Shown: piece by piece, positions 9,701 through 59,189 of the stretch
Numbering within the stretch: the first letter of the stretch is position 1
Layout: the number at the start of each line of letters is the position of its first letter
NCBI GenBank assembly: GCA_977017645.1
Contig: OZ360250.1
Location: forward strand, 30,690,001-30,754,000
Length of the DNA: 64,000 nt
Reading direction: 5' to 3'
Origin: Torpedo marmorata
Taxonomy: Eukaryota
The notes under the pieces: generated by a model
What the model was told of the DNA's origin: nothing
The model's database searches: none
The model's input: the letters and a program-made list of their open reading frames with translations, nothing else
Position numbers and translations under genes: made by a program

Positions 9701-12572
9701 ATACAGTGCTGGGGATGTAGTGGTCTCTCCCTTCACCATACAGTGCTGGGGATGTAGTGGTCTCTCCCTTCACCATACAGTGCGGGGGATGTAGTGGTCT
9801 CTCCCTTCACCATACAGTACGGGGGATGTAGTGGTCTCTCCCTTCACCATACAGTGCTGGGGATGTAGTGGTCTCTCCCTTCACCATACAGTGCTGGGGA
9901 TGTAGTGGTCTCTCCCTTCACCATACAGTGCTGGGGATGTAGTGGTCTCTCCCTTCACCGTACAGTGCTGGGGATGTAGTGGTCTCTCCCTTCACCATAC
10001 AGTGCGGGGGATGTAGTGGTCTCTCCCTTCACCATACAGTGCTGGGGATGTAGTGGTCTCTCCCTTCACCGTACAGTGCTGGGGATGTAGTGGTCTCTCC
10101 CTTCACCATACAGTGCGGGGGATGTAGTGGTCTCTCCCTTCACCGTACAGTGCTGGGGATGTAGTGGTCTCTCCCTTCACCATACAGTGCGGGGGATGTA
10201 GTGGTCTCTCCCTTCACCATACAGTGCTGGGGATGTAGTGGTCTCTCCCTTCACCATACAGTGCGGGGGATGTAGTGGTCTCTCCCTTCACCATACAGTA
10301 CGGGGGATGTAGTGGTCTCTCCCTTCACCATACAGTGCTGGGGATGTAGTGGTCTCTCCCTTCACCATACAGTGCTGGGGATGTAGTGGTCTCTCCCTTC
10401 ACCGTACAGTGCTGGGGATGTAGTGGTCTCTCCCTTCACCATACAGTGCGGGGGATGTAGTGGTCTCTCCCTTCACCGTACAGTGCTGGGGATGTAGTGG
10501 TCTCTCCCTTCACCATACAGTGCGGGGGATGTAGTGGTCTCTCCCTTCACCATACAGTGCTGGGGATGTAGTGGTCTCTCCCTTCACCATACAGTGCGGG
10601 GGATGTAGTGGTCTCTCCCTTCACCATACAGTGCTGGGGATGTAGTGGTCTCTCCCTTCACCATACAGTGCTGGGGATGTAGTGGTCTCTCCCTTCACCG
10701 TACAGTGCTGGGGATGTAGTGGTCTCTCCCTTCACCATACAGTGCTGGGGATGTAGTGGTCTCTCCCTTCACCATACAGTGCTGGGGATGTAGTGGTCTC
10801 TCCCTTCACCGTACAGTGCTGGGGATGTAGTGGTCTCTCCCTTCACCATACAGTGCTGGGGATGTAGTGGTCTCTCCCTTCACCATACAGTGCAGGGGAT
10901 GTAGTGGTCTCTCCCTTCACCGTACAGTGCGGGGGATGTAGTGGTCTCTCCCTTCACCATACAGTGCGGGGGATGTAGTGGTCTCTCCCTTCACCATACA
11001 GTGCTGGGGATGTAGTGGTCTCTCCCTTCACCATACAGTGCAGGGGATGTAGTGGTCTCTCCCTTCACCATACAGTGCGGGGGATGTAGTGGTCTCTCCC
11101 TTCACCATGCAGTGCTGGGGATTTAGTGGTCTCTCCCTTCACCATACAGTGCTGGGGATGTAGTGGTCTCTCCCTTCACCATACAGTGCAGGGGATGTAG
11201 TGGTCTCTCCCTTCACCATGCAGTGCTGGGGATTTAGTGGTCTCTCCCTTCACCATACAGTGCTGGGGATGTAGTGGTCTCTCCCTTCACCATACAGTGC
11301 GGGGGATGTAGTGGTCTCTCCCTTCACCGTACAGTGCTGGGGATGTAGTGGTCTCTCCCTTCACCATACAGTGCTGGGGATGTAGTGGTCTCTCCCTTCA
11401 CCATACAGTGCTGGGGATGTAGTGGTCTCTCCCTTCACCATACAGTGCGGGGGATGTAGTGGTCTCTCCCTTCACCATACAGTGCGGGGGATGTAGTGGT
11501 CTCTCCCTTCACCGTACAGTGCTGGGGATGTAGTGGTCTCTCCCTTCACCATACAGTGCTGGGGATGTAGTGGTCTCTCCCTTCACCATACAGTGCTGGG
11601 GATGTAGTGGTCTCTCCCTTCACCGTACAGTGCTGGGGATGTAGTGGTCTCTCCCTTCACCATACAGTGCTGGGGATGTAGTGGTCTCTCCCTTCACCAT
11701 ACAGTGCTGGGGATGTAGTGGTCTCTCCCTTCACCATACAGTGCTGGGGATGTAGTGGTCTCTCCCTTCACCATACAGTGCTGGGGATGTAGTGGTCTCT
11801 CCCTTCACCATACAGTGCTGGGGATGTAGTGGTCTCTCCCTTCACCATACAGTGCTAGGGATGTAGTGGTCTCTCCCTTCACCATACAGTGCGGGGGATG
11901 TAGTGGTCTCTCCCTTCACCATACAGTGCTGGGGATGTAGTGGTCTCTCCCTTCACCATACAGTGCTGGGGATGTAGTGGTCTCTCCCTTCACCATACAG
12001 TGCTGGGGATGTAGTGGTCTCTCCCTTCACCATACAGTGCGGGGGATGTAGTGGTCTCTCCCTTCACCATACAGTGCTGGGGATGTAGTGATCTCTCCCT
12101 TCACCATACAGTGCTGGGGATGTAGTGGTCTCTCCCTTCACCGTACAGTGCTGGGGATGTAGTGGTCTCTCCCTTCACCATACAGTGCTGGGGATGTAGT
12201 GGTCTCTCCCTTCACCATACAGTGCTGGGGATGTAGTGGTCTCTCCCTTCACCATACAGTGCGGGGGATGTAGTGGTCTCTCCCTTCACCATACAGTGCT
12301 GGGGATGTAGTGGTCTCTCCCTTCACCATACAGTGCGGAGGATGTAGTGGTCTCTCCCTTCACCATACAGTGCGGGGGATGTAGTGGTCTCTCCCTTCAC
12401 CATACAGTGCTGGGGATGTAGTGGTCTCTCCCTTCACCATACAGTGCTGGGGATGTAGTGGTCTCTCCCTTCACCATACAGTGCGGAGGATGTAGTGGTC
12501 TCTCCCTTCACCATACAGTGCTGGGGATGTAGTGGTCTCTCCCTTCACCATACAGTGCTGGGGATGTAGTGG
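3745..12572. repeat. 37-bp minisatellite, about 238 copies (TACAGTGCTGGGGATGTAGTGGTCTCTCCCTTCACCA)
   Basis: Directly visible 37-nt period. Variation is point substitutions only (GCT/GCG/GCA, CAT/CGT/CCT). No unique spacers. Confidence 0.98.
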
Positions 12573-13345: not shown

Positions 13346-13734
13346 GTCATGGTGATACCATTCAATTTCTTGCAGAATTTACATTATATGTCTTACTGTA
13401 AATAAACTGCATTGCAGAATTGCATATGTTATTAAAAAAAAAGAGTATATATTTGAAAAGTAATTTGGCCCAAACTTGGTGTTGTTATTGGGGTTTGTTT
13501 GGGACCTGCATTGTGCAAGGCACAGTGATGGATAGTGGGTCTCCAAAGATAAACCTTGCTTCTCAACCTCCGCTCTTTGCCCCAGAATTCACAAGTGTCA
13601 CCTGCCGAGTCCCCATTTTGCTTCCTACTGCTCACTTGTCCAATACAACAGATCTTGGGACCATCAACATCTCGGACTATGTTACTCAGAGGTCAGGATA
13701 TCGAACTCTGCACTCGTTCCTCAGAAGTCAAGTT

Positions 13735-16700
13735 TAAACTAGATTTGCAGGGGGAGGGGAACCAGAATGTTAGAGCAGTTAGTGAGAAGGAGGAGGATAA
13801 AGGTCATGCGAGGACTGCATGTATAGACAGAAATCAAAGGTTTGTACGTGATAGAAATTTTCTCAGGTGTATTTATTTTAATGCAAGGAGTATTGTTAGA
13901 AAGGCTGACGAGCTTAGGACATGGATTGACACGTGGGATTACGACATTATTGTTATTAGTGAGACTTGGTTGCCGGAGGGGCAGGACTGGCAGCTTAATG
14001 TTCCGGGGTTCCGTTGCTTCAGACGTGATAGAGGGGGAGGGATGAAAGGGGGAGGAGTGTCGTTGCTAGTCAGGGAAAATATCTCAGCTGCGCGAAGTCA
14101 GGACAGCCAGGAGGGTTTGTCTACAGAGGCCATATGGGTGGAGTTGAGGAACGGGAAAGGTGTGACCACACTGATAGGGTTGTATCATAAACTGCCCAAT
14201 AGTCAGAGAGAATTGGGGGAGCAAATCTTTAGAGAGATAGCACGATGTAAGAAGTAGAAAGTTGTGATAGTAGGAGATTTTAACTTTCCAACTATTGACT
14301 GGGACTCCCATACTGTGAAAGGGCTGAATGGCTTGGAGTTTGTGAAATGTGTTCAGGAAAGTTTTCTAAATCAATATATAGAGGTACCAACGAGAGAGGA
14401 TGCAGTACTTGATCTCCTATTAGGGAATAAGACAGGTCAGGTGACAGATGTATGTGTAGGTGAACATTTTGGGTCCAGTGACCATAATGTCATCAGCTTC
14501 AAGTTAATTATGGAAAAGGATAAGTCTGGTCCTCATGATGGGATTTTAAATTGGAAGAAGGCAAATTTTGTGGAAATGAGAAAGGATCGAGGAAGAGTGG
14601 ATTGGGATATGTTGTTTTCTGGCAAGGGTGTGTTAAGTAAGTGGATGGCCTGAAAAAGGTGAAATTTTGAGAGTGCAGAGTACCTGTTAAGATTAAAGGC
14701 CAAGTTAACAGGCATAGGGAACCTTGGTTTTCAAGGGATATTGGCGATCTGGTTAAGAATAAGAGGGAGGTGTATAGCAAGTATAGGCAACAAGAAGCTA
14801 ATGAGGTACTTGAACAGTACAGAAAATGCACGAAAATACTCAAGAAGGAAATCAGGAAGGCAAAAAGAAGACATGAGGTTGCTATGGCAGATAATGTGAA
14901 AGTAAATCCGAAGGGTTTCTACAAGTATATTAAGAGTAAAAAGATAGTAAGGGACAAAATTGGTCCCCTACAGGATCAGAGTGGTCAACTATGTGTTGAG
15001 CCTCATGTAATGGGGGAGATCTTAAACAGTTTTTTTGCATCAGTATTTACTCAGGTGTTATGGACCATGACTGACCATTTGGACTGCGGACGGTCAGCAG
15101 GAAGGATGAAGTCTTTTGGAGTACACACTGGGACCAGGTACTGAAAGAGTTAACTTCCCCAGGACTTGGTGTACCCAGAGAGAGAGACACCAGAGACAGG
15201 CTGTGGAAAAGATACTTTGTTGCACTTTTGCAAAAGCAGGTGCAAACCTCTGCAAAAAGCATTGAGGTTCAGTGGCAGTTTTGGAGTTGCAAAGGCTAGA
15301 GAACACAGCAAAATCCAGGCTTGTGCATCCCAGGGAAAAAGCCTGGGAGAATAGCACATGGCCTCCTGTCTCAGCAAAATCCTGAGTTAAAGGAACTTTT
15401 GTGGAGAACAGGCGTGAGATCAGCGAGACAAGCTGTGAGATCCAAGTACACGCCTCAATCAGTGGTATACTGATTTGGAGTCGCAATCCTCGTGAATCTC
15501 TACCAAAAAGGAAAGTCATCAGAGAAGAAAAGCAAGCCAAGTATTCGTAAGCATAAACAGTCATTGTCTCTCTCCAACGTTCATTGAGAAGTCCTTCTTG
15601 CCAGCACACAGAGCTGAATTTGGATCCTGAACATAGAGAGTGAATTTTTGTGGACTGTATTATTCTTTTTTTTGACTGACTAGTTTTTATGACTGACCTG
15701 GGGTTTTTGGGGAAAGCTTTTCCATTTTTACATGAGGGTTGGGCACAGACTGTAATGGTCTGGGCTTTACACACACACACACGCACACACCTTTTAGATA
15801 AGAATAGTGTTTATAGATGTTTATAGTGGGGTTAATTGTTGTGAAATTATATGTTTAATTGTCTTTAATAAATATAAATTTCAATTTTACCCCTTTTGCA
15901 TTGCATCTTCTGTCGTTGCTGGTTTGAATTTTGTAACACAGGAAACTGGCATAGTGCATAAGGAAGGAAGGGAAACAAACAGGAGTGTCATGGAACATAT
16001 GGAGATTAAGGAGGAGGAAGTGCTTGCTGCCTTACAGCGAATAAAGGTAGATAAATCCCACGGGCCGGATATGATATTCCCTCGGACCTTGAGGGAGACT
16101 AGTGTAGAAATTGCAGGGGCCCTGGCAGATATATTCAAAATGTCCTTAGCCATAGGTGAGGTGCCAGAGGATTGGAGGGTAGCTCATGTTGTTCCATTGT
16201 TTAAAAAAGGCTCCAAAAATAAACCAGGTAATTATAGGCCGGTGAGCCTGACATCAGTAGTAGGTACATTATTGGAAGGAGTTCTGAGAGATAGGATATG
16301 TAGGTATTTGGACAGCCATGGGCTGATTAAGGATAGTCAGCATGGCTTTGTGTGTGGTAAGTCGTGTTTAACGAATCTTATAGAGTTTTTCGAGGAGGTT
16401 ACCAAGAAGGTAGATGAAGGAAAGGCGGTGGATGTTGTCTACATGGACTTTAGTAAGCCTTTGACAAGGTCCCACATGGGAGGTTAGTTCAGAAGGTTAA
16501 GACATTAGGTATCCATGGAGAGGTTGTAAACTGGATTCGAAATTGGCTGTGTGGGAGAAAACAGAGTGGTAGTTGATGGTTGGTTTTTCAGACTGGAGGC
16601 CTGTAACTAGTGATGTGCCTCAGGGATCTGTGTTGGGACCATTGTTGTTTGTTGTATATATCAATGCTCTGGAAGATAATGTGATAAATTGGATCAGCAA

Positions 16701-17620
16701 GTTTGCTGATGACACAAAGATAGGAGGTGTTGTGGACAGCGAGGAAGATTTTCAAAGCTTGCAGGGGGATCTGGACCAACTGGGAGAATGGGCCAAAAAA
16801 TGGCAGATGAAGTTTAATGCAGACAAGTGTTAGGTGATGCATTTTGGAAGGGCAAACCAAGGTAGGACATACACAGTAAATGGTAGGGCACTGAGGAGTG
16901 CGGAGGAGCAAAGAGATCTGGGAATACAGATACATTGTTCCCTGAAGGTGGCGTCGCAGGTGGACAGGGTTGTAAAGAAAGCTTTTGGCATCTTAGCCTT
17001 TATAAATCAAAGTATTGAGGGTAGGAGTTGGGATGTTATGTTGAAGTTGTATAAGACATTGGTGAGGCCAAATTTGGAATATTGTGTGCAGTTCTGGTCA
17101 CCTAACTACAGGAAGGATATCAATAAGATTGAAAGAGTGCAGAGAAGATTTACTAGGATGTTGCCGGGTCTTCTGGAGTTGAGTTACAGGGAAAGATTAA
17201 ACAGGTTACGACTTCATTCCTTGGAGCGAAGAAAAATGAGGGGAGATTTGATAGAGGTTTACAAGATTATGAGAAGTATAGACAGAGTGGATGCGAGTAG
17301 GCTTTTTCCACTTAGATTGGGGGAGATAAATACGAGAGGTCATAGTTTTAAGCTGAAAGGAGAAAGGTTTAGCGGGAACATTAGGGGAATGTTCTTCACT
17401 CAGAGAGTGGTGGGAGTGTGGAAGGGCTGCCATCTGATGTGGTGCATGCGGGCTCGATCTTGAGTTTTAAGAATAGATTGGATAGATGCATGGATATGAG
17501 AGGTCTGGAGGGTTATGGAATGGGAGCAGGTCAATTGGACTAGCGGAATAATGGTCGGCACAGATTAGAAGGGCCGAATGGCCTGTTTTCTGTGCTGTAG
17601 CATTCTATGGTTCTATGGTT
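13735..17620 (+). mobile_element. CR1 LINE with near-complete but disrupted ORF2 (APE endonuclease + RT), interrupted by a solo LTR
   Basis: Motifs LRCIYFNARSI, ISETWL, GDFNFP, GSSDHN, NYRPVSLTSVV, VYMDFSK, VPQGSVLGP, KFADD, LEYCVQFWSP. 3' tail (TTCTATGG)n at ~17603-17620. Multiple stops and frameshifts. Confidence 0.95.
15056..15938 (+). mobile_element. Solo LTR (Gypsy-like), 883 bp
   Basis: TGTTA...TAACA termini. 4-bp TSD CAGG on both sides. AATAAA near 15867. Splits the CR1 reading frame at FASVFTQ|E. Confidence 0.85.
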
Positions 17621-19061: not shown

Positions 19062-19565
19062 TCAGATCAAATACTATTTATTGACATGTAATAAAACAGA
19101 AATGTAATATCACACGAAATTGCTATTAGGTAGAGAAGATTCGCCATGAACATTTCCCGGTGCCCCTTGCAGTCAGAGAAAGAGAAGCAAAAGAGAGTCC
19201 CCCCCAGGGTCACCGAGTGTCTTTGGATCCACCTCGAACTCTCCCACAGCCTCTGCAGTCGCACAAGATTCCAGTTCAGTTCAAACCATCGTCAAACCGA
19301 GCCCAGATCCAAACCTCCGACGCCCCTGGTACGTTTTGAACGGTGGGAAGAAACCGGAGCGCCCGGAGGAAACCCACGCAGACATGGGGAGAACGTACCA
19401 ACTTCTTAAAGACAGCGCGGGATTCGAACCCCGGTCGCTGGCGCTGTAACAGAATTACGCTAACCGCTACGCCCCACGAGGAAACCTTCAGCGCGCGTCG
19501 GGAGCCCTTCTTGCCCTCAGCACCCTCTCGAATTCCGGTTCCCATACCTGGTTCCCATGAGTTAG
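19062..19565 (-). mobile_element. Non-coding retroposon (family of 35590-36515) with a tRNA-SINE inserted at ~19325-19475
   Basis: CAGTCAGAGAAAGAGAAGCAAAAGAGAGTCCCCC block is shared with the copies at 27443, 35590 and 39450. Confidence 0.8.
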
Positions 19566-24113: not shown

Positions 24114-26622
24114 CAGGGTATTTCAAACTTTTTTTTTTCCACTCATATACCACCTGAAGTAATCCCTATGCCATAAGTGCTCTGTGATTGGTAAGGGATT
24201 ACTTAAGGTGGTATGTGAGTGGGAAGGGAAGGTTGAGAACCACTGCTCGAGACCCAATTGTTACTGAAATATTTTGCTTGAGAAAAATCGTCGTTGGCCC
24301 GTTTCCTTTCGAGTTATGAAAACGTGCACATAACGAGTCAATTAGGTAGGATTAAAGTAGTAAAACACGAAAATCTGTAGACACCGTGGTTGAAGTAAAA
24401 AACACAAATGCTGGAGAAACTCAGCAGGTCAAACAGTGTCTTTTATGTAGCAAAGGTAGAAATACATAACCGACGTTTCGGGCTTGAGCCCTTCATCAAA
24501 GTATGAGAAAATGCCGGCAGGCGTCCGAACAAAAGAGTGAGGGGGGAGGGGGGGGGGGTGGCAAAGGCAGGAGATGATAGGTGGAGAAAGGAGGGAGGGG
24601 ACAGCAGCAAAGAGGGGGAGGAGGGATGGCTGGGTGGGTGGAAAAAAACATGAAGGACAGGTGACGGGGGAGGGGAAGGAAAAGACAAGCAGGTTTAGTG
24701 GAAAGCAGAAAAGTCAATGTTAATGCCATCTGGCTGGAGAGTGACCAGACGGAAAATGAGATGTTGTTCCTCCAATTTGCGGGTAGTCTGGGTGGGATAG
24801 TACATGAGGCCATGGACAGACATGTGAGTGTGGGAATGTGACTCGGAATTGAAATGGCTGGCTACTGGAAGGTCGCTGTTGTTGCGGACGGAGAGGAGGT
24901 GCTCAGCAAAGCAATCTCCCAATCTGTGACCGATCTCTCCGATGTAGAGAAAGCCACAAAGGGAGCACCGGATGCAGTAAATAAGTTCTCTGGATGTGCA
25001 AGTGAAGTGTAGTTTCATTTGAAAGGCCTGTTTGGGGCCCCGGACCGTGGTGAGGGGGAAGGTGCGGGCGCAGGTGTTGCACCTCCTGCGGGCACAGGGG
25101 AAGGTGCCGGGGGTGCGATGGGTGGGGAGGGATGAGTGCACGAGGGAATCGCGGAGGGAGTCGTCCGTGCGGAAGGCCGAGTGGGTAGGAGAAGGAAAAA
25201 TGTGTCTGGTGGTGGGATCCTGTAGTAAGTGCCGGAAATTCCGGCGGATAATGTGTTGGATGCGGAGGTTGGTGGGGTGGTAGGTGAGGATGAGGGGGAT
25301 TCTATGTTTGTTGCGTCTGGGGGCAGAGGGGGCCAGGGCAGATGAGCGGGAAATGGAGGAGATGCGGGTGAGGGCTGAGTTGATGGTGGTGGAAGAAGGC
25401 AGACATTTCAGAAGATTTGGACTGGAAGACCTCATCTTGGGAACAGATGCGGCGGAGACCGAGAAATTGAGAGAAGTGGATGGAATCCTTGCAGGGGACA
25501 GGGTGTGAGGAAGTGTAGTCCAGATAGTTGTGTGAGTTGGAGGGTTTGTAGTAAATGTTGGTGGAAAGCTTGTCTCCCGAGATGGAGACAGAGAGATCCA
25601 GGAAGGGGAGAGTGTTATCGGAGATGGACCAGGTGAGTTTGAGATCGGGGTGGAAGTTGGATGTGAAGTGGATGAAGTTGACAAGCTCATCGTGGGTGCG
25701 TGAGGCAGCCCCGATGTAGTTGTCGATATAACGGAGGAAGAGATGAGGGGTCTTGCCTGTGTAGGCTTGCAGCATGGATTGCTCCACAAAGCCCACAAAC
25801 AGGCAGGCGTAGCTGGGACCCATGTGGGTACCCGTGGCTACTCCTTTGATTTGGAGGAAATGGGATGAGTTAAATGAGAAGTTATTGAGAGTGAGTACAA
25901 GTTCTGCCAGGCAGAGGAGGGTGGTGGTAGAGGGTGATTGGTCGGGTCTTTGGTCCAGGAAGAAGCGAAGTGCTTTCAGACCTTCTGTGTGGGGGATAGA
26001 GGTATAAAGGGATTGGACATCCATGGTGAAGATGATGCAGTCCGGTTCAGGGAATCTGCAGTCATTGAGGAGATGGAGGGCATGTGAGGTGTCGCGGATG
26101 TAGGTGGGGAGGGATTGGACCAGGGGAGAAAAGATGGAGTCAAGGTAAGATGAAACTAGTTCAGAAGGCATGAGCAGGCAGAAACAATGGGTCTGCCCGG
26201 ATGGTTGGGTTTGTGTATCTTGCATAGAAGGTAGAAATGGGCAGTGCGGGGGTGGGAGAGAATGAGGTTGGTGACCGTGGAGGGGAGGTGACCGAAGGTG
26301 ATGAAGTCGGAGATAGTGTTGAAGACAGTGGCTTGATGTGCAGTGGTGGGGTCCTGTGGGAGGGGTCGGTAGGAGGAGGTGTCTGAGAGCTGTCGACTGG
26401 CCTCGGCAAGGTGGAGGTCATTGCGCCAGACCACAACCGCACCGCCCTTGTCTGCGGGTTTGATGGTGAGGTTGGGATTGTAGGATTAAAACAGTGGTTT
26501 TCAATCTTTTTCTTTCCACTCACATACCACCTGAAGTAATCGTTACTAATCACAGAGCACCTATGGCATAGGGATTACTTCAGGTGGTATGTGAGTGGAA
26601 ATAAAAAGTTTGAAAGCCACTG
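24114..26622. mobile_element. Composite hAT (Charlie-like) MITE: two palindromic units (24114-24245, 26492-26622) plus spacer, interrupted by a Penelope element
   Basis: CAG...CTG palindromic units share CCACTCA(T/C)ATACCACCTGAAGTAATC. Outer 8-bp TSD CTCGACAC / CTCTACAC. Confidence 0.75.
24357..26479 (-). mobile_element. 5'-truncated Penelope-like element (RT + GIY-YIG endonuclease), frameshifted
   Basis: Motifs TIKPADKGGAVVVW, TMDVQSLYTSIPH, GPSYACLFVG, FLRYIDNYIG, LPFLD and GIY-YIG LIYCIRCSLCGFLYIGE. Flanked by an 11-bp direct repeat GTAGGATTAAA. Confidence 0.93.
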
Positions 26623-27442: not shown

Positions 27443-27990
27443 TTTCAACCTTCCTTTATTGTCATGTAATAGTACAGAACATGTAATATTACACTAAATT
27501 GCCTTCTGCCTGTCGTAAGGCAGACAAAGAGTCACCATTAGTGTCACCCGGCGCCCCTTACAGTATGAGAGAAAGAGATGCAAAAGAGAGTCCCTTCAGT
27601 GTCACCGAGTGTCTGGATTCGTCCCCAGCCCTTCTGCAGCCGCACAGAATCCGGTTCGATTCATCAGCAACCCGAGCTCCAGATCCAAACGTCACGAAGC
27701 CTTCAGCGCCTGAGGCCCTTCGGGAGCCCTTCTTGCCCTCAGCACCCTCTCGAATCCCAGTTCCGAAACCTGGTTCCCATGAGCCAGTCTCCAGCAGCCC
27801 GTGTGGCCTCTCGCTGGTCCATCACCGTTCTGTAGGGTCACCTCCTCTGCTTCTCCTTCTCAACGGGGGGTGTTCTCCCCATTTCTGATGCCCTGCGCTG
27901 GTCCGCTGCTCCCCCAGAGTCTGAAACCCCTCGTGGCCACTGCTAAGCACAGGGGCCGCCATCTAGGCACAAACCCCGTGGTTGCAGGAT
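27443..27990 (-). mobile_element. Non-coding retroposon (family of 35590-36515)
   Basis: Colinear similarity to 35590-36280, including the GCCATCT (YY1-like) motif. Confidence 0.8.
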
Positions 27991-29255: not shown

Positions 29256-29328
29256 TAATTAAAACCTGTTTAAAAAAACTTTATTTAGTTATTAAAAAAA
29301 GTTAAGATTGTTTATTAACGATTCAAGA

Positions 29329-30739
29329 ATGACTACAAGAAAAGGCAAGGAGCAAAAGTCAAAGAAAGTAGTGCTTCAAGAAAGTTTAATTCAAGAGGAA
29401 GATCGGCCTACCTTACCCATGGAGCCTCGGGTTCAAGTTTCTCTCCCTCCCAGGAAGACGCGGACAAGGACGGTCAAGGTAACTGCAGCACCAGCGCCGT
29501 CCTCCCAGGGAGCTGGGGAAGATGGCGCTGGCGTACGAAGGAAGACTAAAGAACTACAACCCGAGAGTGAACGATCACGCATGCGCGAAACGGTGCGCAT
29601 GCGCGATAAAGAACGGGAGCTGTCAGCTAAGGCTGACGGCAAAAGAAGAGTCCTTCAATCATTTCAGTATAATGTTGGACAGGATTTTTCATCATCAACA
29701 GAGTCAGAGGACAAAAGGAGAGAGAAAGATGAAGAAATGGAGGAAGAAATAGAAGAAATGGAGGGAGAGGATGAAGAATTAAGTGGAGAGAAGGCTCAAT
29801 TACCCCAGGCTAAACAAGAAATATCAGAGATCTTGATTAAAGCTATGGACAATTTAACAAAACAAGTGTCAAAGATGAATCAACGCATGGAATTTAGATT
29901 TAATGGAATTGAGGAAGAAATGAGAGACATGAAACATGATATGAAAAAATATACAAATACTGTGGATAAAGTAATATCGAAAGTCCAGAAAATTGAAAAA
30001 GATGTTAAAGAGCAAGCACTATGAAGAAATGGTGTATTATAAAGACAGAGTTGATAAAGTGGAAGACTCATTTACAGGTTGGGAGCAACAAAGAAATGAA
30101 CTTTTACAAAAAATAGATGTATTGGAAAATCAGAGCCGTAGAAATAATGTTAAAATCGTGGGATTGCCCAAAGATTTTTTCAAAATTGGATTCCAGAAAT
30201 TTTGGGTATTGAACACTTTCCATATGGACTGGAATTAGATAGAGCCCATAGAGATAGCAGAAAGAAACCGTATCCTGGACAAAGGCCACGTTCATTGTTA
30301 ATCAGATGTCTTCGTTACCAGGATAAAGAGAAGATATTGAAATTAGCTGTTCAAAATGCTAGAATGAACCAGAGTCCATTGATAATTAATAAAAATAGGG
30401 TATATTTTATGCTGATTTAAGCGCAGTAATAATTAAAAAACGAAAAGAATTTAACCCAGCGAAGGCAATTTTTTGGAGTAAAGGATATAAATTTTCATTT
30501 AGATATACTGCGACAGTCTGGAGAGAATCAGTCATTCTTTTTTACTGATTATCAAGAAGCTTTGGAGCATGCAAATTGCAAATTCACTTCCGAAATTAAA
30601 GAAAGATCAAGAGTTGTTGGGGCAACTTCAAGTTACTGAACGGACTCGGGACTTGCTTTCACCAAGAGCTTCAGGACAAGAAGATGGGGTCGAAATAGAT
30701 GAGGATCAAGCTAACAGAGATCTCGAAGAAGCTGGATGA
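29329..30739 (+). pseudogene. L1 ORF1p (basic/acidic N-terminus, coiled coil, RRM), broken by a stop and frameshifts
   Basis: Heptad-rich region, then LENQSRRNNVKIVGLP, LELDRAHR and PRSLLIRCLRYQDKEKIL. Confidence 0.85.
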
Positions 30740-31025
30740 AGAAATGATAACAAATATTGTGTAAAATCTGTTGGGGGGGTGCACTTTTTGTCTTCTCCTC
30801 ACCTAGTCACACGTCACCTTAGTGGCGAGGGCCATTTCCCGTACAATGGAGGGTGGTAGTACTGGTGTAAATATACCAGTATTTTACATAGTGGGGTTTT
30901 TTTAGTTTTTTATATTCTTTTTATTTCTTCTTTTCTTTTTCTTTCTAAGGAGATGTCAAATAGATTACAAATGTGGAAGGGGGAACCGGTAGGTCTGATG
31001 GGGAGAGAGTTATTAAATATTAGAA

Positions 31026-34000
31026 ATGGCGGATAGTAAATTAATAAATGTAGTAAGTATTAATATAAATGGGCTAAATAATCCGATTAAAAGGAAGAAA
31101 ACTCTAGCATATATTAAAAAGTTAAAAGTTGACATAGCTTTTTTACAAGAGACACATTTGACAGAAATAGAACATCAGAAGTTGAAAAGAGAATGGGTTG
31201 GTCAAGTGGTAGCGTCTTCATTTAATTCTAAAGCAAAAGGAGTTGCTATATTAATTAATAAAAAGTTACCTTTTAAAATACAATCGGTGGTTATAGATGT
31301 GGCAGGAAGATATGTTTTAATAAATTGTCAGATATATTCAGAAATGTGGACAGACACTTATGAACATATATGTGCAAAATACGGAAGATGAACAATTTAT
31401 CCAAGACTCGTTTATGCACTTGTCAGAAGCAAATGATAATATTTTAATTGATGGGGATTTCAATTGTTGTTTAGATCCAATAATGGATAAAACATCAAAA
31501 TCAACTATCAGAACTAAAACTGCTAAAAGAATTCTTACTTTGATGAAAGATTTGAATTTAATAGATATTTGGAGGAAGTTGAATCCAAAAGATTATTCCT
31601 TTTATTCTTTTAGACATGATTCTTATTCTAGAATAGAAATGTTTGTATTGTCATCACAATTAGAAGATAGGGTGACTCAAGCGCAATATAAAGCAAGAAT
31701 AATTTCTGATCATTCGCCTCTATTAATGTCATGTATAATTCCAGAAAAAGAAAAAATTATATATAGATGGAGATTTAATTCTTCTTTATTGAAAAGAACA
31801 GATTTTTGTAATTATATAGGAATAGAAATTCAAGAAATTTTACAGATTAATTCTAATTCGATTGACAATAAATTTATTAATTGGGAAGCTCTGAAGGCTT
31901 ATTTAAGAGGTCAAATAATAAGTTATTCAGCAAAAGTTAAGAAGGAATATATTCAGGAATTGAATAATTTGGAGAAGGAGATTGAGTTTTTGGAGAAGGA
32001 TTTGCAAAAAAAGAGATCAGAAGAAAACAGAAAAAATTTAATTGAAAAAAATTATTATAATACGTTACAAACATATAAAATGGAAAAATTAATTGAAAGA
32101 ACTAAGCAAAGATATTACGATTTGGGAGAAAGAGCTCATAAAGTGTTAGCGTGGCAATTAAAGAAAGAACAAACTTCTTGAACTATAAGTGCTATAAAAA
32201 GAGAATCCAAAGAAAATAACATATAAACCTTGAGAAATAAATGATTCTTTTAAGGAATTTTATCTAAATTTATATAAATCTCAAATTGATAAAGATGATT
32301 CTAAAATTAATTAATTTTTATCTAAAATTAAGTTACCTAGATTAAATATTCAAAGTAAAGAACTTTTAGATACATCGTTTACAATGAGAGAAGTTAATGA
32401 TGTTCTTAGCTCTTTAACAAGTGGAAAATCTCCGGGGGAGGATGGTTTCCCACCAGAATTTTATAAGGAATTTAAGGATTTATTGATGCCTCCATATATG
32501 GAGGTGTTAAAACAAATAACGGAAACTCATTCTCTACCGGAAACATTTTCAAATGCAATAATAACAGTTATACCTAAAAAAGATAGAGATTTGTTGAAAA
32601 CAGAATCATATAGACCAATTTCATTGTTAAATGTGGATTATAAGATAATGGCAAAAATTTTAACAAATAGAGTGGCTAAATATTTACCAGATTTAATCCA
32701 TGTAGATCAAGCAGGTTTTATTAAGAATAGATATTCAAAAGATAATATTGCCAGATTAATTCGTTTAATAAATGTGGCACAAAAGAGAGAGGAATTAGCA
32801 CTAGTATTAACATTAGATGCCGAAAAGGCTTTTGATAGATTAGAGTGGAATTATTTATTTAAAGTGTTTGAAAAATTTGGTTTTGGAACTACATTTATTA
32901 ATTGGATTAAAACTATTTCTTCAAAATTTTTATTGACTAGGTCAACTCGACAAGGATGCCCTTTGTCGCCAGCATTGTTTATTTTAGCAATTAGAACCTT
33001 TAGCAGAATTAATTAGACAAGATATTAAGATTGTAGGTATTAAAGTTGGAAAAGAAGAGCATAAAATTAGTTTATTTGCAGATGATGTATTGATTTACAT
33101 GACAAAACCTATTACTTCTTTAACACAATTGACTGTTTTACTGAGAGAATATGGGGAAATATCTGGTTATAAGATTAATTCTGATAAAAGTGAAATTATA
33201 GCATTGACAAGGAGATTATAAAAAATGTAAAGAAATTACACGATTTAAATGGTCAAATGATCAAATTAAATATTTGGGAATAAAAATATATACAAAATTA
33301 GGAAATTTATATAAATCAAATTACTTACCATTATTTACTAATATTAAAAAAGATTTAGAGTTGGAAAGATTTACCTATAACTTTAATAGGAAGGGTAAAT
33401 TGTATTAAAATGAATGTTTTTCCAAGAATTCAATCTATTTTTCAATCAATTCCTTATGAAATTCCTCAAATATTCTTCAAAGATTTAAATTTAATTATTA
33501 GGAAATTCTTGTGGAAAGGAAAGTTGGCTAGAGTAGGTATGGAGAAATTAATTTGGGATTACGAAATGGGAGGTTTACAACTTCCCAATTTTCAAAATTA
33601 TTATAAGGCAGCTCAATTAAAATTTATTAAAGAAATGTTTGATTTAGAAAAATCTTCTGCTGGGATTAGAATAGAATTAAATAATATAGGAGAGGATTTG
33701 AAAGAAGAAGTTATTTATAAGTGGAATTCTAATTTATTACTAAGGAAAGGTAATTCTCCTATTTTAAAACATTTGTTAGAAATATGGAATAAAATGGATA
33801 GGGAGATAGGAGGGAAAGGGTTAATTTCTCGAAAAATGTCTTTATATCAAAATAAACTTATTCCATTTACTATTGATAATCAATTATTTAAAATTTGGTT
33901 TCATAAAGGAATTTTAAAAATAAATGATTGTTTTGAAGCTAGTAAATTTATTACTTTTCAAAGAATGAAAGAGAAGTTTAAAGTATTAAATAATACACTT

Positions 34001-34760
34001 TTTGCTTATTATCAAATTAGAGCATTTTTAGTTGAAAGGTTGGGTTATAGTTTAATTTTACCAAGACAAAGTGAATTGGAATTATTAGTTACTAATTGGG
34101 GTGTAAATAAATTTATTTCTCAAATGTATAGATTGTTACAGAGCAAAATACCAAAATTAGGAATTCATAAATCAAGATTAAAATGGAAATCAGATCTGAA
34201 TATAACAATAGATGAGGAACATTGGAAAGAAATATGTAAACAAAGTATGACGAAGATTATTAACTTTAGATATAGGTTAGTGCAATATATCTTTTTGCAT
34301 CAATTATATTTAACACCTAAGAAATTAAAGAAATTTAATCCGACATTATCAGGTTTATGTTTTAGATGTAATAGAGAGGAAGATTCTTTTGTACACTCAA
34401 CATGGCTTTGCCCAAAGATATATGATTTCTGGTTGGAAGTTAAAAAGTTTTTAGACAAAGTATTAAGAATTACACTCTCAATGGATCATATGATATTTTG
34501 TTTGGAGATATTAAAAGAATTAGTACTAAAATGAGATTAAATATGTATCAAATAGAATTTTTGCGAATTGCTTTAGCTGTTTCAAAGAAATGCATTGCTA
34601 TTACTTGGAAGTCTGATGTAGATTTAGGGTTAGAGAGATGGCATGCAGAACTTCGTTCATGTATACCACTTGAAAAAATTACTTATAATTTACGTAAGAA
34701 ATATCATTTCTTTTTGAAAATATGGAGCCCATATATAAAAACTGGGTTTAAGGATTTGAA
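31026..34760 (+). pseudogene. L1 ORF2p (APE endonuclease, RT, CCHC), disrupted
   Basis: Motifs NINGLNNPIKR, FLQETHL, GDFN, SDHSP, KSPGEDG, YRPISLLNVDYKI, LDAEKAFD, RQGCPLSP, LFADD (~33072), CFRC...HSTWLC. Confidence 0.93.
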
Positions 34761-34836: not shown

Positions 34837-35018
34837 NNNNNNNNNNNNNNNNNNNNNNNNNNNNNNNNNNNNNNNNNNNNNNNNNNNNNNNNNNNNNNNN
34901 NNNNNNNNNNNNNNNNNNNNNNNNNNNNNNNNNNNNNNNNNNNNNNNNNNNNNNNNNNNNNNNNNNNNNNNNNNNNNNNNNNNNNNNNNNNNNNNNNNNN
35001 NNNNNNNNNNNNNNNNNN
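34837..35018. other. Assembly gap (N run)
   Basis: Run of n. Confidence 1.
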
Positions 35019-35173: not shown

Positions 35174-37130
35174 ACAATGTGAGTGCAGTACCACTCAACG
35201 CTGTGATTCAATGTTCATCAGGCTCACAGCCTCATGAAAAAAGCTCTTCTTGAGTCTGCTGATACGCGAGCGAAGGCTCCTGTAGCGCCTGCCAGATGGG
35301 AGAAGAGTAAAAAGTCCATGATTTGGGTGAGATGCATCCTTGATGATGTTCCTCGCCCCGCCCAGTCACCGTTCCCTACAGATGTTCTCGATGGTGGGCA
35401 ATTGGATGCCAATAATCCGCTGGGCAGTTTTCACCACCCGCTGGAGTGCTTTGTGGTCTTGTGCAAGACAATTACCATACCACGCCGAGATGCCATATGT
35501 TAGTACGCTCTCAATGGTACATCTATAGAAATCCAGTAATATCCTGGGACAGAGGTGTACCTTCCTCATGCTCCGCAGAAAATAAAGATTCAAGATTCAA
35601 TTTATTGTCATAGTAATAAGACAATGTCATATTCCATGAAATTTCTTTTTGCCTGCTGCAAGGCAGACAGATTCGCCACCAGCAGAAATTGCCTAAGCGC
35701 CTCTAACATTCCTTACAGTCAGAGAAAGAGAAGCAAAAGAGAGTCCCCCCAGAGTCACCGAGTGTCCATAGATTCGCCTCCAGCGCTTCCGCAGCCTCCG
35801 CAGCCACACAGAGTTCAGTCCAAACGATCGGCATCCCGAGCTCCAGATCTGAACCTCCAACACGGTCAGGTTGCCCTCGGCACCCCCTCGCATCCCGGTT
35901 CCGATACCTGGTACTCCTCCAGCCAGTTCGAGCCAGACTCCAGCAGTCCGCAGCCCGGCGTGAGTCCCCCGACAGCAGTCTCCAGCAGCCCACAGCCTCT
36001 GCGGGTTTCCTCGCCTCGAGTCGCCAGCAGCCCGCCTCATGCACTGGTCCTTCAGCCTCAGAGCCCCTCACTGGTCCGCTGCCATTGTCACCGTCCCGTG
36101 GGTCGTCTCCTCCGCTTCTCCTTCTCAGACAGGTGGGGGGTGATCTTCCCGTCCTCTGGTGCCCTGCTCCAGTCCTCCGCTTCCCTGGAATCTGCAGCCC
36201 CTCGTGGCTGCTGCCAGTTAAAAGGCGCTGCCATCTTGGGCGCAGACTCCGTGGTCGCTGGATCTGAAATAAAACCCATGCGGAACCGACGGCAGTCGAC
36301 TGGGCGGCTGGACCCTGCGGGAGCGCTGTATCTCCGCTCCCACGCTCCCCGTGGGTCCGCACCAGCGGCAGCGCTGCTGCTACAGCGGCTCCGGCAGCGC
36401 CGCCATTACTTACTATGATGGAAATCCTGAGGCTATTATTATGAGCTTTCTTAACTCTGCAGGCTGTGGGAAACAAACGATCGCCGCAATTAGAGCCGTG
36501 AAGCCAGGGGAGGGAGACGCTGTTGTGCCTTTTTAATCAGAATTTAAGAATCCAGGGACCAGGTGAGATCTTTGGAAATATGGACGCCAAGAAATTTAAA
36601 GCTCGATAAACATTCCACCACAACTCCATTGATGTAAATAGGGATGTGAGTGTGTCTTCCAGCACGCCTGAAGTCCACAATGATCTCCTTGGTCTTCTGA
36701 GTATTGAGTATCAAATTGTTGTCAGCACACCACAAGGCCAGGTGCTGAACCTCATCCCTATAGGTCGTTTTATCATCCCCTCTGATCAGACCAACCATCA
36801 TGGTGTCATCTGCGAACTTGATTATAGAATTTGTACTATGTACAGGAACGCAGTCGGAGGTAAAAAGGGAATACAGAAGCAGGCTCAACACACAACCCTG
36901 GGGAAAGAATGGAAGAGAAAAGATTGCCTAACTTAACAGATTGGGGTCTGTTAGTTAGAAAGTCCAAAATCCAATTACAAGGGATGAGCTGGTACCAAGC
37001 AGACGAAGTTTGGTGAACAGCTTGGAGGGAATCACAGTGTTGAAAGCTGAGCAAAAGTCAATGAACAGCATTCTGACACAGGAGTTAGAGCTGTCCAAGT
37101 GAGTCAAAGCAGAGTGAAGTGCTGTTGAAA
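35174..37130 (-). mobile_element. Rex1/Babar LINE RT and C-terminal region, split by the insertion at 35590-36515
   Basis: KFADD...FKFLGVHISKDLTWS...KKAQQR | LYFLRS...RCTIESVLTY is colinear across the insertion. Confidence 0.88.
35590..36515 (-). mobile_element. GC-rich non-coding retroposon with a Rex1-type 3' tail (longest copy)
   Basis: Inserted between the QQR and LYFL codons of the host Rex1, with an apparent AGA duplication. Minus-strand 3' end ATGACAATAAATTGAATCTTGAATC. Four copies in the window. Confidence 0.8.
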
Positions 37131-37517: not shown

Positions 37518-37747
37518 TCTCTCCCACCACCACCTTGATTGTAGTGGGTCAAAGATACTCTGTGATGGATGGAAAGGGTCCTCAATAATTCTTTGAGCCC
37601 TATTTAAGCAATTCTCCAAGTAAATGTCACTAGAGGAAAGAGAGACCCCAGAGACAGTGTCGGATTAACCTAGTAGCGAAAGTAGCATATGCTACGGGCC
37701 ACACATTTTCAAGGGCCCCACGCTAAATGCTTGCAAGCTATCAATTC

Positions 37748-37876
37748 AAGTACGAGGACATGCTGCACTTCGCCGTAGCCCAGTCCGAGGCGGCCCGCCA
37801 GATGGGCGACCCGGATCGTGTCACCGAGGCCTACCTCAGCTTGGCGCGGGGCCACGAGAAGCTGTGCGAGTTCTCT
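37748..37876 (+). pseudogene. RAPSN: Captured fragment of rapsyn (43 kDa receptor-associated protein of the synapse), about residues 58-100, TPR region
   Basis: Translates as KYEDMLHFAVAQSEAARQMGDPDRVTEAYLSLARGHEKLCEFS. Torpedo rapsyn as recalled reads KYEDMLRFAVAQSEAARQMGDPERVTEAYLNLARGHEKLCEFS. Human as recalled reads [43 protein letters not shown]. Confidence 0.9.
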
Positions 37877-38412
37877 GTGAAGCCCCTGTGCGCAGTGACT
37901 GCCCGCTGCTGCTCCTCTGATTGACAGCTCACTCCGCCCCTCCCGGGCTGCTGCCGCCCCGTTACAGTGCCCGCGAGCGTCACTGAGCGCCGTTCCCGCA
38001 GCAACAGGCCGGTCCACGGAGGACCCTGCGGCCTGGGCCCAGGGTGAAGGTGAGACTTGCCCCGGGCGGAGCGGTAGCAGCCGGAGGGTGAGTCCCGGGT
38101 GCTCGTTGCCCGGGGCGCGGGCCCGGTCCTCGTTGGAGCCACGCTGCCCGGAGGTGCTGCCGGGGTGTGAGTGCGGCCTTGGGGAGGAGGGCAAGCGGCA
38201 CCAAGGTCCGGGCGAGGTCCGGCCTGGGCCTCGTCCCCCCACAGTCGGGCCGGTGAGAGAAGAGGCGGGGAGGGGGTTGAGTGCAGGGACCGCGCCTCCT
38301 GTCACACAGGGCCGATCAGGGAGAAGTGTCCGTGACAATGCCGTGGGCAGCGAGTGTGTCCGGCTGCATCCCCTCTTCCCCCGGCCGCATGGATGGGGGG
38401 CCGGGGGATGGG

Positions 38413-38512
38413 GGGCCGCCTCGGACTGGGCTACGGCGAAGTGCAGCATGTCCTCGTACTTGAATTGATAAGCTTGCAAGCATTTAGCGCGGGGCCCTTG
38501 AAAATATGTGGC
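38413..38512 (-). repeat. Inverted copy of 37698-37796, including about 49 nt of RAPSN (KYEDMLHFAVAQSEAA)
   Basis: Reverse complement matches apart from 2 substitutions and a 1-nt indel, all in the non-RAPSN half. Confidence 0.95.
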
Positions 38513-39449
38513 ACCCGCTCCTCCTCCCCCCCCCCGCTGAGTGAGTTCTCGAACGGCAGTTTGTGCCCCCCCGCGATTACCCTAATGCCCCCCTATTAGA
38601 TCTCTTCTGACGCTGACTCTGCTATGCAAGTAAAAGATTTATGTGTTTTAATATTTATGTGTATTTTTATAATTTAGGGCCCCTTTATAACATATTCTAC
38701 AGGCCCCACACTAGCTTAATCCGGCCCTGCCCAGAGATCCTCACGGCTGTTTCCCTGATCCTCTGTGTTGACTTCTTTCCGATGCTTTGCTGCTACCGTC
38801 CCACGCAATGATGCAGCCAGACAGGACACTCTCAAATGTGCTCCTGTAAAATGTTGTCAAGATGGGGGCCGGTAGCCTTGCCCTCCTCAACCTCCTTAGG
38901 AAGTGGAGGCGCTGCTTTGCCTTCCTGACTAACGAGGAGGTGTTGTGGGTCCAGGCTAGGGTCGTCCTTTATGTGCACACCAAGGAACTTTGTGCTCTCC
39001 ATGACGGAACCATAGAGTGGTCGACCTTCATCCTCCTGAAGTCCACAATCATCTCCTGTGTGCAGAATGGAAACAGGCTATTCAGCCCCGAGTGAAGCAC
39101 TCATTAACTCTTATTTCCCCCACCACATTCCCATCACCTCACCCTAAGTTCTACCGCTCACCTGCACACCAGTGACAATTTACAGTGGACCATTTACCAA
39201 CCAGCCCACATGCTCTTTAATGTTCCATTAACACGCATTAATACATTTTAAATTGTGAAATACTCATCAAGATCTTGTATTAATTGACTTACTAGATCCA
39301 TTGAAGCTGACAACCAATGATGGTTTTGCAATCATCGAATGCAACTTTGCAAGCAAAACCACACTCTGTCAGAACATCACACAGCAGCCAGCCTCTATCA
39401 CAGTACACAAGAGTGCTGAAGAAACTCAGCGCGTCACACAGCATCCATA

Positions 39450-40050
39450 GATTCAAGATTATTTTACTGTCATGTAATAAAACAGAAAATGTGATATGAC
39501 ACGAAATTTCCTTTAGTCTACCGTAAGGCAGACAACAATTCACTATCAGCACAAATTGCCCGGCGCCCCTTACAGTCAGAGAAAGAGAAGCAAATGTGAG
39601 TCCCCCCAGAGACACTGAGTGTCCGTGGATTCGCAGCCACACAGCCTTCAGTCCAAACCATCAGCAACACGAGCTCCAGATTCACACCTCAGGAAGCATC
39701 CAGCACCCTTTCTCATCCCGGTTCCAATACCTGGTACCCCTTCAGCCAGTCTCCAGCAGTCTGAAGTCTGGTGTGAGTCCTTGATCGCAGTCGCCAGCAG
39801 CCCGCATCCTACGTGGGTACCTCGCCTCGAGTCACCTTCAGCCTCAGACCCCCTCACTGGTGCGCCGCCGTGATCACTGTACCATGCCTCGTCTCCTCTG
39901 CTTCTCCTTCTCAAACGGGGATGGCCGTTGGACTGGGCGGTTGGACCCTGCGGGGGAGCGCTGAGACTTCGCTCCCCGCTCTCCACAGATCCGCGCCAGC
40001 GGAAGCGCTTCCGTTACAGCAGCTCCGGCAGCGCCACAATTTTCATTATA
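39450..40050 (-). mobile_element. Non-coding retroposon (family of 35590-36515), internally deleted
   Basis: Shared tail, CAGTCAGAGAAAGAGAAGC block and GCTCCGGCAGCGCC 5' block. Confidence 0.8.
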
Positions 40051-40687: not shown

Positions 40688-41643
40688 GAAACAACGTCTC
40701 CTCCTCACTGATTATCAACACAGGCGCACCCCAAGGATGCATGCTTAGTTCACTGCTCTACTGTGTGGCCAGGCACAATTCCAATGCCATCTACAAGTTT
40801 GCCGATGACACCACAGTTGTCGGCAGAATCACAAACGGCAATGAGGAAGCGTACAGGAGGGAGATAGATCAGCTCGTTGAATGGTCTAATGGTAACAACC
40901 TTGAGCTCAACGTCAGCAAAACCAAGGAGATGATTGTGGACTTCAGGAGGAAGTCAGGGGAACACGACCCAGTCCTCATCGAGGACGCAGTAGTGGAGAG
41001 GGTCAAGAACTTCAAATTCCTGGGTGTCAACATCTCCGAGGATCTGTCCTGGAGCATCCACGTTGATGCAATCACAAAGAAGGCTCGTCAGCGGCTATAC
41101 TTTGTGAGGTGTCTTCGGAGATTCGGTATGTCACCGAAGACTCTCGTAAACTTCTACAGGTGTACCGTGGAGAGCATTCTGGCTGGTTGCATCACTGCCT
41201 GGTATGGAGGCACCAACTGCCAGGACAAGAGTAAACTCCAGAGGGTTGTTAACTCGGCCTGTGACATCACAGGCACCAAACTTCACTCCATCAAGGACAT
41301 CTACATGAGGCGGTGTCTTAAAAAAGCAGCCTCTATCCTCAAAGACCCCCATCACCCAGGCCATGCCCTCTTCACTCTGCTTCCATCGGGAAAAAGGTAC
41401 AGGAGCCTAAAGACGAGCACTCAACGGCACAAGGACAGATTCTTCCCCGCTGCCATCAGATTCCTGAATAATCAATGAACCAAAGACACTGCCTTACTTT
41501 TCGTGCACTATTGTTTATAATTTTTTATTATAATGTCGTAAGATGGTTAATATGAATGTTAATTGCACTATGACGCTGCCGCAAAACACCGAATTTCATG
41601 ACTTGTTCATGACAATAAATTCTGATTCTGAATTCTGATTCTG
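40688..41643 (+). mobile_element. Young 5'-truncated Rex1/Babar LINE; 245-aa open RT C-terminal frame (40741-41478)
   Basis: YKFADDTTVVG...KKARQRLYFVRCLRRFG...HHPGHALFTLLPSGKRYRS. (ATTCTG)n tail. Confidence 0.95.
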
Positions 41644-54046: not shown

Positions 54047-54987
54047 CAGTAGTCCCACCTTATCTGCAGGGGATATGTTCCAAGACCCCCAGCGGATGCC
54101 TGATACCGCGGATAGTACTGAACCCTACACAGGGTATGCGCCGCTTAACGTCCTCGATACGTTCTGTGAAATTGGGCGTTATGCGATGTGGACGTTGTGC
54201 GAACACAATGTACTTAGCAAAGTAACTGTTGTGTACCTGTAAACTTTTTATTTGTAAGTAGGGATCAGTGTAGGGACCGACACAGGGCTGTGGGGAGAGA
54301 GCGGGGCAGTGGGATCAGTGTGGGGACCGACACGCAGCTGTGGGCAGAGAGCGGGGCAGTGGGATCAGTGTGGGGACCGACACGGGGCTGTGGGGAGAGA
54401 GCGGGGCAGTGGGATCAGTGTGGGGACCGACACGGGGCTGTGGGCAGAGAGCGGGGCAGGGGGATCAGTGTGGGGACCAACATGGGGCTGTGGGGAGAGA
54501 GCGGGGCAGTGGGATCAGTGTGGGGACTGACACAGGGCTGTGGGCAGAGAGCGGGGCAGTGGGATCAGTGTGGGGACCAACACGCGGCTGTGGGCAGAGA
54601 GCGGGGCAGTGGGATCAGTGTGGGGACCAACACGGGGCTGTGGGGAGAGATCGGGGCAGTGGGATCAGTGTGGGGACAGACACGGGGCTGTGGGGAGAGA
54701 GTGGGGCAGTGGGATCAGTGTGGGGACCGACATGGGGCTGTGGGCAGAGAGCGGGGAAGTGAGATCAGTGTGGGAACCGACACGGGGCTGTGGGGAGAGA
54801 GCGGGGCAGTGGGATCAGTGTGGGGACCGACACGGGGCTGTGGGGAGAAAGAGGGGCAGTGGGATCAGTTTGGACTGATACAGGGCTATGGGGAGAGAGC
54901 GGGGCAGTCGGATCAGTTTCAGACCGCGGTTGACTGCAGGTAACTGAAACCGCGGAAAGCGAAACCGCGGATAAGGGGGGACCACTG
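54047..54987. mobile_element. Tigger-like element containing a 50-bp minisatellite
   Basis: TA|CAGTAGTCCCACCTTATCTGCAGG ... CCGCGGATAAGGGGGGACCACTG|TA. Confidence 0.85.
54261..54920. repeat. 50-bp G-rich minisatellite, about 13 copies
   Basis: Unit GGGATCAGTGTGGGGACCGACACGGGGCTGTGGGGAGAGAGCGGGGCAGT. Confidence 0.97.
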
Positions 54988-59056: not shown

Positions 59057-59189
59057 NNNNNNNNNNNNNNNNNNNNNNNNNNNNNNNNNNNNNNNNNNNN
59101 NNNNNNNNNNNNNNNNNNNNNNNNNNNNNNNNNNNNNNNNNNNNNNNNNNNNNNNNNNNNNNNNNNNNNNNNNNNNNNNNNNNNNNNNN
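59057..59189. other. Assembly gap (N run)
   Basis: Run of n. Confidence 1.

Follow-up and report, generated by a model that had tools for sequence, protein, structure and literature searches.

The window, by which we mean the whole 64-kb stretch of DNA that was analysed, contains an element of 1,075 bp (37655-38729) that is flanked on both sides by the octamer CCCAGAGA (37647-37654 and 38730-38737). It carries a coding fragment of the rapsyn gene (RAPSN), a GC-rich second cargo and an inner inverted copy (Table 1). The coordinates that a sequence-only reading had given for the element and for its perfect 8-bp TSD were reproduced. The duplication is exact at 8 bp, and the other lengths from 4 to 13 bp gave no match. 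The length of 14 bp given for the TIRs in that reading also stands, although their identity is limited to 12/14 (17/20 when extended; left CAGTGTCGGATTAA, right CAGGGCCGGATTAA) and the repeats are thus imperfect. The 64 kb were scanned for an exact 8-bp direct repeat combined with 14-bp inverted ends with at most two mismatches. The RAPSN element was the sole match, and no match was obtained in any of 20 local shuffles.

Table 1. Positions of the features at the RAPSN element and in its flanks.
Feature	Position	Strand	Basis
Host non-LTR retrotransposon remnant, 3' part of RT ORF, ending in the left TSD	37536..37654	-	tblastn
Left TSD CCCAGAGA	37647..37654	.	exact duplication, frame test
Left TIR, 12/14 vs right TIR	37655..37668	+	inverted repeat
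Left subterminal region	37669..37747	+	repeat comparison
Part similar to the second element (1881-2338) at its left end	37655-37700	+	repeat comparison
Block repeated within the inner inverted copy	37698-37747	+	repeat comparison
Cargo 1: RAPSN coding fragment, residues 58-100	37748..37876	+	protein match
Cargo 2: CpG-island-like segment, 532 nt, not RAPSN	37877..38408	+	composition; probable promoter/first exon
Pbx/Prep DECA motif TGATTGACAG, exact	37918..37927	+	motif match to PMC6023610
GC box, after the DECA motif	37932-37940	+	motif scan
Candidate 5' splice site AAG/GTGAGA	38047..38055	+	weak alone
Second candidate 5' splice site GAGG/GTGAGT	38088	+	weak alone
13-nt direct repeat, period 15, across the junction of cargo 2 and inverted copy	38391..38418	+	repeat search
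Inner inverted copy of 37698-37800, 104 nt, 96%	38409..38512	-	repeat search, protein match
Second RAPSN piece, residues 58-74, within the inner inverted copy	38409-38461	-	
Subterminal block within the inner inverted copy	38462-38512	-	
Right subterminal region, AT-rich toward the end	38513..38715	+	composition
Right TIR	38716..38729	-	inverted repeat
Right TSD CCCAGAGA	38730..38737	.	exact duplication, frame test
Second part of the host non-LTR remnant, from upstream in the same RT ORF; stop and frameshift	38738..39061	-	tblastn

A single decayed reverse-transcriptase ORF, read on the minus strand, is split by the element into its two flanks. Excision of the element together with one TSD copy resulted in a frame that is continuous across the junction in tblastn comparisons with two RT ORFs of the window, both of which carry PF09004 and one of which also carries RVT_1. 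With both TSD copies retained, the frame was broken in one comparison and a gap was forced in the other. Since the TSD is exact and the host frame is restored on removal, we regard the locus as a true transposase-type insertion into a dead LINE, in agreement with the sequence-only reading. We take this LINE to be of the Rex1 type. The two longest ORFs of the element matched no Pfam family, which supports the earlier statement that a transposase is lacking. TSDs of 8 bp can also be produced by P, Merlin and some MULE elements, and the TIRs presumably resemble hAT-Tip100 ends. The TIR string itself was absent from the papers covered by a full-text literature search. For hAT elements, a TSD of 8 nt is described (PMC8903248). 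The label hAT rests on the 8-bp TSD and the short TIRs, and the element is best read, from this architecture, as non-autonomous and hAT-like. Its own DNA probably comprises about 93 bp at the left end and 217 bp at the right end, about 310 bp in total.

Other features were observed in the window. A 37-bp tandem array at 3745-12572 comprises 238.6 copies with 97% matches, and a 50-bp array at 54261-54917 comprises 13 copies. N-run assembly gaps are located at 34837-35018, 2.6 kb to the left of the element, and at 59057-59189. Long retrotransposon ORFs, decayed and with endonuclease or RT domains, occupy 13553-17463, 24695-26417, 29296-34534 and 40690-41478; we assume the retrotransposon ORFs of the window to be of the CR1, Penelope, L1/Tx1 and Rex1 types. 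Members of a GC-rich repeat family of several hundred bases, 70-80% alike, are found on both sides of the region at 35586-36407, 39449-40041, 27444-27990 and 19077-19561. A second hAT-like non-autonomous element of 458 bp lies at 1881-2338, with TIRs that agree at 16/17 positions and a TSD that agrees at 7/8 (GTCACATT/GTCACAGT). Its first 47 nt are like those of the RAPSN element, and its interior contains a 26-bp tandem repeat and no RAPSN. As a related element without cargo, it shows that ends of its TIR class were mobile in the host genome.

To rapsyn the sequence-only reading had assigned 129 nt of the interior (37748-37876). The translation was reproduced, and in the protein search it matched rapsyn of Tetronarce californica (P09108, residues 58-100) at 40/43 positions with an E value of 4.6e-17, the only match among 7 candidates. 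The three differences counted before, one of them at N88, are R64H, E80D and N88S. The fragment contains neither a stop nor a frameshift and has a GC3 of 91% and a CpG o/e of 1.0. The Pfam model Rapsyn_N scored 14.1 bits against it, under the cut-off of 23, and the identity rests on the direct protein match. A PDB sequence search returned no rapsyn entry, just designed helical repeats. Beyond 37748-37876 the homology does not continue: the downstream score was 1.5, a value reached by 43% of 300 controls, and the upstream score was 0. No further RAPSN exons were found elsewhere in the 64-kb window.

Residues 58-100 are covered by 66 of the 69 named rapsyn records. Identity to the fragment was 40/43 for the two Tetronarce records and 38/43 for Narcine, and at most 29/43 for the 63 other named rapsyns. 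Six residues of the fragment are common to all three electric-ray records and occur in none of the 63 others. Judged from these sequences, the RAPSN donor is an electric ray or a close relative, and on this ground the host genome is probably that of an electric ray. As an observation on rapsyn itself, the electric-ray protein is strongly diverged at 58-100, with six private residues including G92 and H93 (otherwise S and N), and this divergence exceeds that suggested by hagfish-to-shark distances. It is possibly linked to the evolution of the electric organ.

Asparagine is present at position 88 in all 66 named rapsyns, H64 in none, and the 63 non-electric records have D80. One nucleotide change suffices for each of R64H, E80D and N88S, and N88S is a single transition. 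In humans, N88K is a common allele in myasthenia (PMC10494853). A functional meaning of N88S was considered and rejected, as the change is one transition and the fragment cannot make rapsyn; it lacks both the N-terminal myristoylation site and the RING domain. Because an internal piece of 43 residues cannot produce the protein, N88S is best read as decay, and to us it looks like neutral decay.

It is conceivable that the RAPSN cargo derives from spliced RNA, by RNA-templated repair or as a retrocopy, and such an origin would be compatible both with assembly of the element in place and with its arrival as a member of a mobile family. Intron positions are usually conserved among vertebrates. The human variant c.193-15C>A, equivalent to IVS1-15C>A, places intron 1 between codons 64 and 65 (PMC10955331, PMC10494853). 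The fragment runs without a gap over this position with colinear numbering (N88 corresponds to N88), so if rays keep intron 1, the cargo was spliced. Isoforms X2 of bichir (two records) begin at M76, as if the first coding exon were skipped. Breaks at 230, 263, 304, 322 and 389 in fish, shark and ray models coincide with later human boundaries, of which 304|305 is documented (PMC10494853). On the other hand, a break at 64|65 or 177|178 is seen in none of the 51 named models from fish, sharks and rays; the evidence on exon boundaries is drawn from named records. In Scyliorhinus torazame (GCB85080.1), residues 1-230 lie on a 1,721-bp contig that then reads into an intron, and a Rhincodon model spans exactly residues 1-230. 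These models suggest one long exon for residues 1-230 in elasmobranchs, where intron 1 may be absent. Codon 64 of the fragment is CAC. A single change separates it from CGC, but two or three changes separate it from the G-ending arginine codons expected at an exon end. Moreover, the marks of a processed pseudogene, namely a poly(A) tract and a separate TSD around the RAPSN fragment, are absent at junctions J1 and J2. We regard a spliced source as unlikely. Literature searches found no account of the ray RAPSN gene structure. The exon structure of RAPSN seems to differ among lineages, with a break at 177 in a sperm whale model and at 114 in a mormyrid model.

The second cargo (37877-38408) had been missed in the sequence-only reading, as had the inner inverted copy (38409-38512). 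It has a GC content of 72% and a CpG o/e of 0.70, compared to 45% and 0.44 for the whole window. When the 64 kb were scanned in intervals of 532 nt, eight passed the CpG-island threshold, all of them inside the RAPSN element; both cargos are CpG-island-like. The decamer TGATTGACAG was found in 1 of 5000 dinucleotide shuffles, a frequency that understates the true chance because the motif was picked after looking. A donor-like splice site appeared in 613 of 5000 shuffles and is not significant alone. The segment contains no ATG. From its composition and motifs, it probably represents the promoter and the non-coding first exon or intron start of a second gene, though it may be a GC-rich part of some other repeat. 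Within the 64-kb window, no other copy was found. Two further assignments were rejected. As a RAPSN 5' leader, the segment gave a best E value of 0.24 against the 56 residues by which the Narcine rapsyn model extends upstream, which is no real match. As coding DNA, its ORFs of 290 aa and 189 aa matched no Pfam family, and the 189-aa ORF had no Atlas match. The theme of synaptic-gene pieces proposed by the sequence-only reading is not borne out, as most of the cargo is non-RAPSN and resembles a generic CpG-island promoter.

Read in reverse complement, the segment 38409-38512 agrees with 37698-37800 at 96% identity, and the two arms differ in 4 of 104 columns. Its part of the left subterminal block (51 columns) shows two substitutions and one indel, and in the 53 nt of RAPSN the first 49 are identical, with one mismatch in the last 4. 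As the copy holds the junction between element and RAPSN, it was made during or after capture. At its inner junction, a 13-nt direct repeat and a 9/10 match to the continuing RAPSN sequence were observed, and at its outer junction a short imperfect match. In RNA folds as well as DNA folds, the arms pair into a long stem, and the DNA fold of 37698-38512 reached -288 kcal/mol compared to -191 ± 7 kcal/mol for 15 shuffles. H64 is present in both RAPSN copies and would accordingly be either a host allele or the sign of a time gap between capture and duplication, which weighs against the mechanism favoured below.

Inverted repeats can also be yielded by chimeric reads, and the assembly has N gaps, one of them 2.6 kb upstream of the element. 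Furthermore, cDNA of Torpedo rapsyn is widely used in laboratories. An assembly artefact or a contaminating cDNA or construct nevertheless seems scarcely credible. A chimera cannot yield the TIRs, the TSD and the restored LINE frame, the arms differ at 4 of 104 columns, the fragment has substitutions found in no named rapsyn, and natural plasmids gave no match.

A Pack-TIR is defined as a single TIR element whose two ends enclose more than 100 bp of non-TE host sequence (PMC8277862). With 129 nt of RAPSN between its ends, the element is, by its structure as read from the sequence, a Pack-TIR. We hold with moderate confidence that it is a non-autonomous hAT-like Pack-TIR in a dead LINE, of single or low copy number and quite possibly assembled in place, whose cargo was acquired by template switching and in which RAPSN is a decaying passenger. 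In the proposed mechanism, a small non-autonomous element would have suffered an internal break, and repair would have copied 129 nt from the coding part of RAPSN, which is GC-rich, and next 532 nt of another CpG island. The strand would then have folded back onto the new left arm and copied 104 nt in reverse, with microhomology and a slippage repeat, and finally have rejoined the right end of the element. Short homologies and the 13-nt repeat are present at junctions J3 and J4, in line with template switching; the order and timing of the switches are as we infer them. In a sub-model, a central palindrome of the small parent element would have been the site of the break; the two subterminal blocks end in AATT. 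These blocks differ at 3 of 51 columns, compared to 0 of 49 in the first RAPSN nucleotides, which fits the palindrome sub-model in a small sample.

Neither donor was found in the window, which covers 37.6 kb to the left and 25 kb to the right of the element, and this counts against assembly in place. The sequence-only reading had instead supposed that the element came to this site by transposition together with its cargo and that a family may exist; the element would then have been built elsewhere, by a FoSTeST-like process, and be a member of a multicopy Pack-hAT family. Besides the missing donors, this is favoured by the perfect TSD, the multi-step interior and the second element at 1881-2338, which belongs to the same TIR class. 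The CpG o/e is 0.71-0.78 in the element's own ends, compared to 0-0.45 in the host LINE, whose remnant beside the left TSD (37536-37654) has no CpG left. As the ends keep their CpGs, the element appears young. Its family could have been active, and this speaks for movement with the cargo. For frogs, in which DNA transposons are active, 3 of 23 Pack-TIRs are multicopy, and among animal Pack-TIRs 57% lie within 15 kb of the parent, whereas all multicopy cases are distal (PMC8277862). The base rate argues against a mobile family, however: of 281 unique animal Pack-TIRs, 4 are multicopy and the other 277 occur as single copies (PMC8277862). In addition, the 64-kb window holds one copy only. Protein searches returned no chimeric product: one search, over 7 candidates with lengths of 77-2000 aa, gave a single match, and in another the 16 matches included no representative with more than 59% identity. 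This argument is weak, as the libraries contain little ray genomic DNA. We consider this history somewhat improbable; the missing donors and the young ends would raise the chance that a loaded element moved, to a level not above even.

The arrangement of the interior would also allow a functional element, in which the putative promoter lies between inward-pointing RAPSN pieces and an antisense RNA or a 104-bp hairpin RNA could tune rapsyn mRNA. From the geometry, transcription in either direction would read RAPSN antisense, and read-through from outside would give the hairpin, whose long stem appears in the RNA fold. The DNA fold below that of the shuffles, the DECA motif and the GC box also agree with such a role. 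Yet it is a prediction from sequence and folding models, RAPSN accounts for just 49-53 nt of the stem, and such folding is expected of any inverted duplication. A search for structured RNA families gave one match, the best Rfam score being 10.6 bits compared to a cut-off of 70. A CpG island inside a transposable element is probably methylated. We thus judge a function to be very unlikely. Exceedingly unlikely is the combination of all these elements, that is, a still-mobile multicopy electric-ray hAT family with a rapsyn fragment from spliced RNA, a housekeeping promoter and a hairpin, making antisense or double-stranded RNA against rapsyn mRNA. If true, it would mean plant-style mosaic Pack elements and RNA-templated capture in cartilaginous fish, with an RNA aimed at the scaffold mRNA that is most abundant in the electric organ.

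We compared the element with gene-capturing TIR elements of animals and plants. The sequence-only reading had called such elements rarely reported in vertebrates, which is overstated, as 370 Pack-TIRs, 208 of them hAT, are listed for 100 animal genomes, with exonic cargo in 13.4% (Tan et al. 2021, PMC8277862). Like Pack-hAT-N8_XT of Xenopus tropicalis and other animal Pack-TIRs, the RAPSN element has non-autonomous hAT-type ends and a TSD around a short host-gene fragment. Animal Pack-TIRs arise by gap filling, show breakpoint microhomology in 67.6% of cases and have a median cargo of 224 bp (PMC8277862). The RAPSN element shares the exonic cargo and the breakpoint microhomology, and its cargo is near this median. 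It differs by its two unrelated donors and by the inverted junction copy. In the survey, the parental copy had to have at least 90% nucleotide identity and not to be flanked by a TE, a single parent had to cover 80-120% of the insert length, and intronless copies were dropped (PMC8277862). RAPSN accounts for 129 + 53 of about 765 nt of the interior, outside the range for a single parent, a rule that is a filter of the pipeline and not part of the biological definition. Under these rules, the RAPSN element would probably have been filtered out, and known animal Pack-TIRs are mostly single-donor and single-copy partly because the survey filtered for such cases. The elephant shark, the sole cartilaginous fish found in the supplements of that study, has 0 Pack-TIRs, and the words 'skate' and 'RAPSN' are absent from its 12 supplementary files (PMC8277862). 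Literature searches on rapsyn capture, vertebrate Pack-TIRs, spliced capture and cartilaginous-fish hAT fragments, among which few subscription papers were covered, gave no report of the element.

A likeness to the ARF6 processed pseudogene in MER20 (PMC8277862) applies only if the RAPSN fragment was spliced. The RAPSN piece differs in that it is 129 nt long and internal to the CDS, with no poly(A) and no TSD of its own, and the ray intron may not exist. With plant Pack-MULE, Pack-CACTA and Pack-hAT elements, the RAPSN element shares captured coding DNA in a TIR element and an 8-nt TSD (PMC8903248). It differs from the plant Pack-TYPE elements by its vertebrate host and by the lack of evidence of amplification. 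Pack-MULEs combine several donors per element and are biased to the GC-rich 5' ends of genes. MULEs with internal or solo TIRs also carry extra terminal sequence inside without a TSD of its own, and gene fragments are possible (PMC3310237). In such multi-TIR MULEs, long TIRs of about 100 bp or more are repeated internally, whereas the TIRs of the RAPSN element measure 14-20 bp and its repeat is subterminal, excludes the TIR and includes 53 nt of the captured gene. The element shows a fold-back duplication with readable junctions in a batoid, a lineage not found covered in the literature searched. It bears on two questions, the amplification of mosaics by vertebrate hATs in the manner of plant Pack elements and the uptake of spliced RNA by a DNA transposon; if it was neither amplified nor spliced, it is an instructive fossil without function. 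Pack-TIRs themselves are known in vertebrates, and the new aspect here is a mosaic of two donors, with an inner hairpin, found in a batoid.
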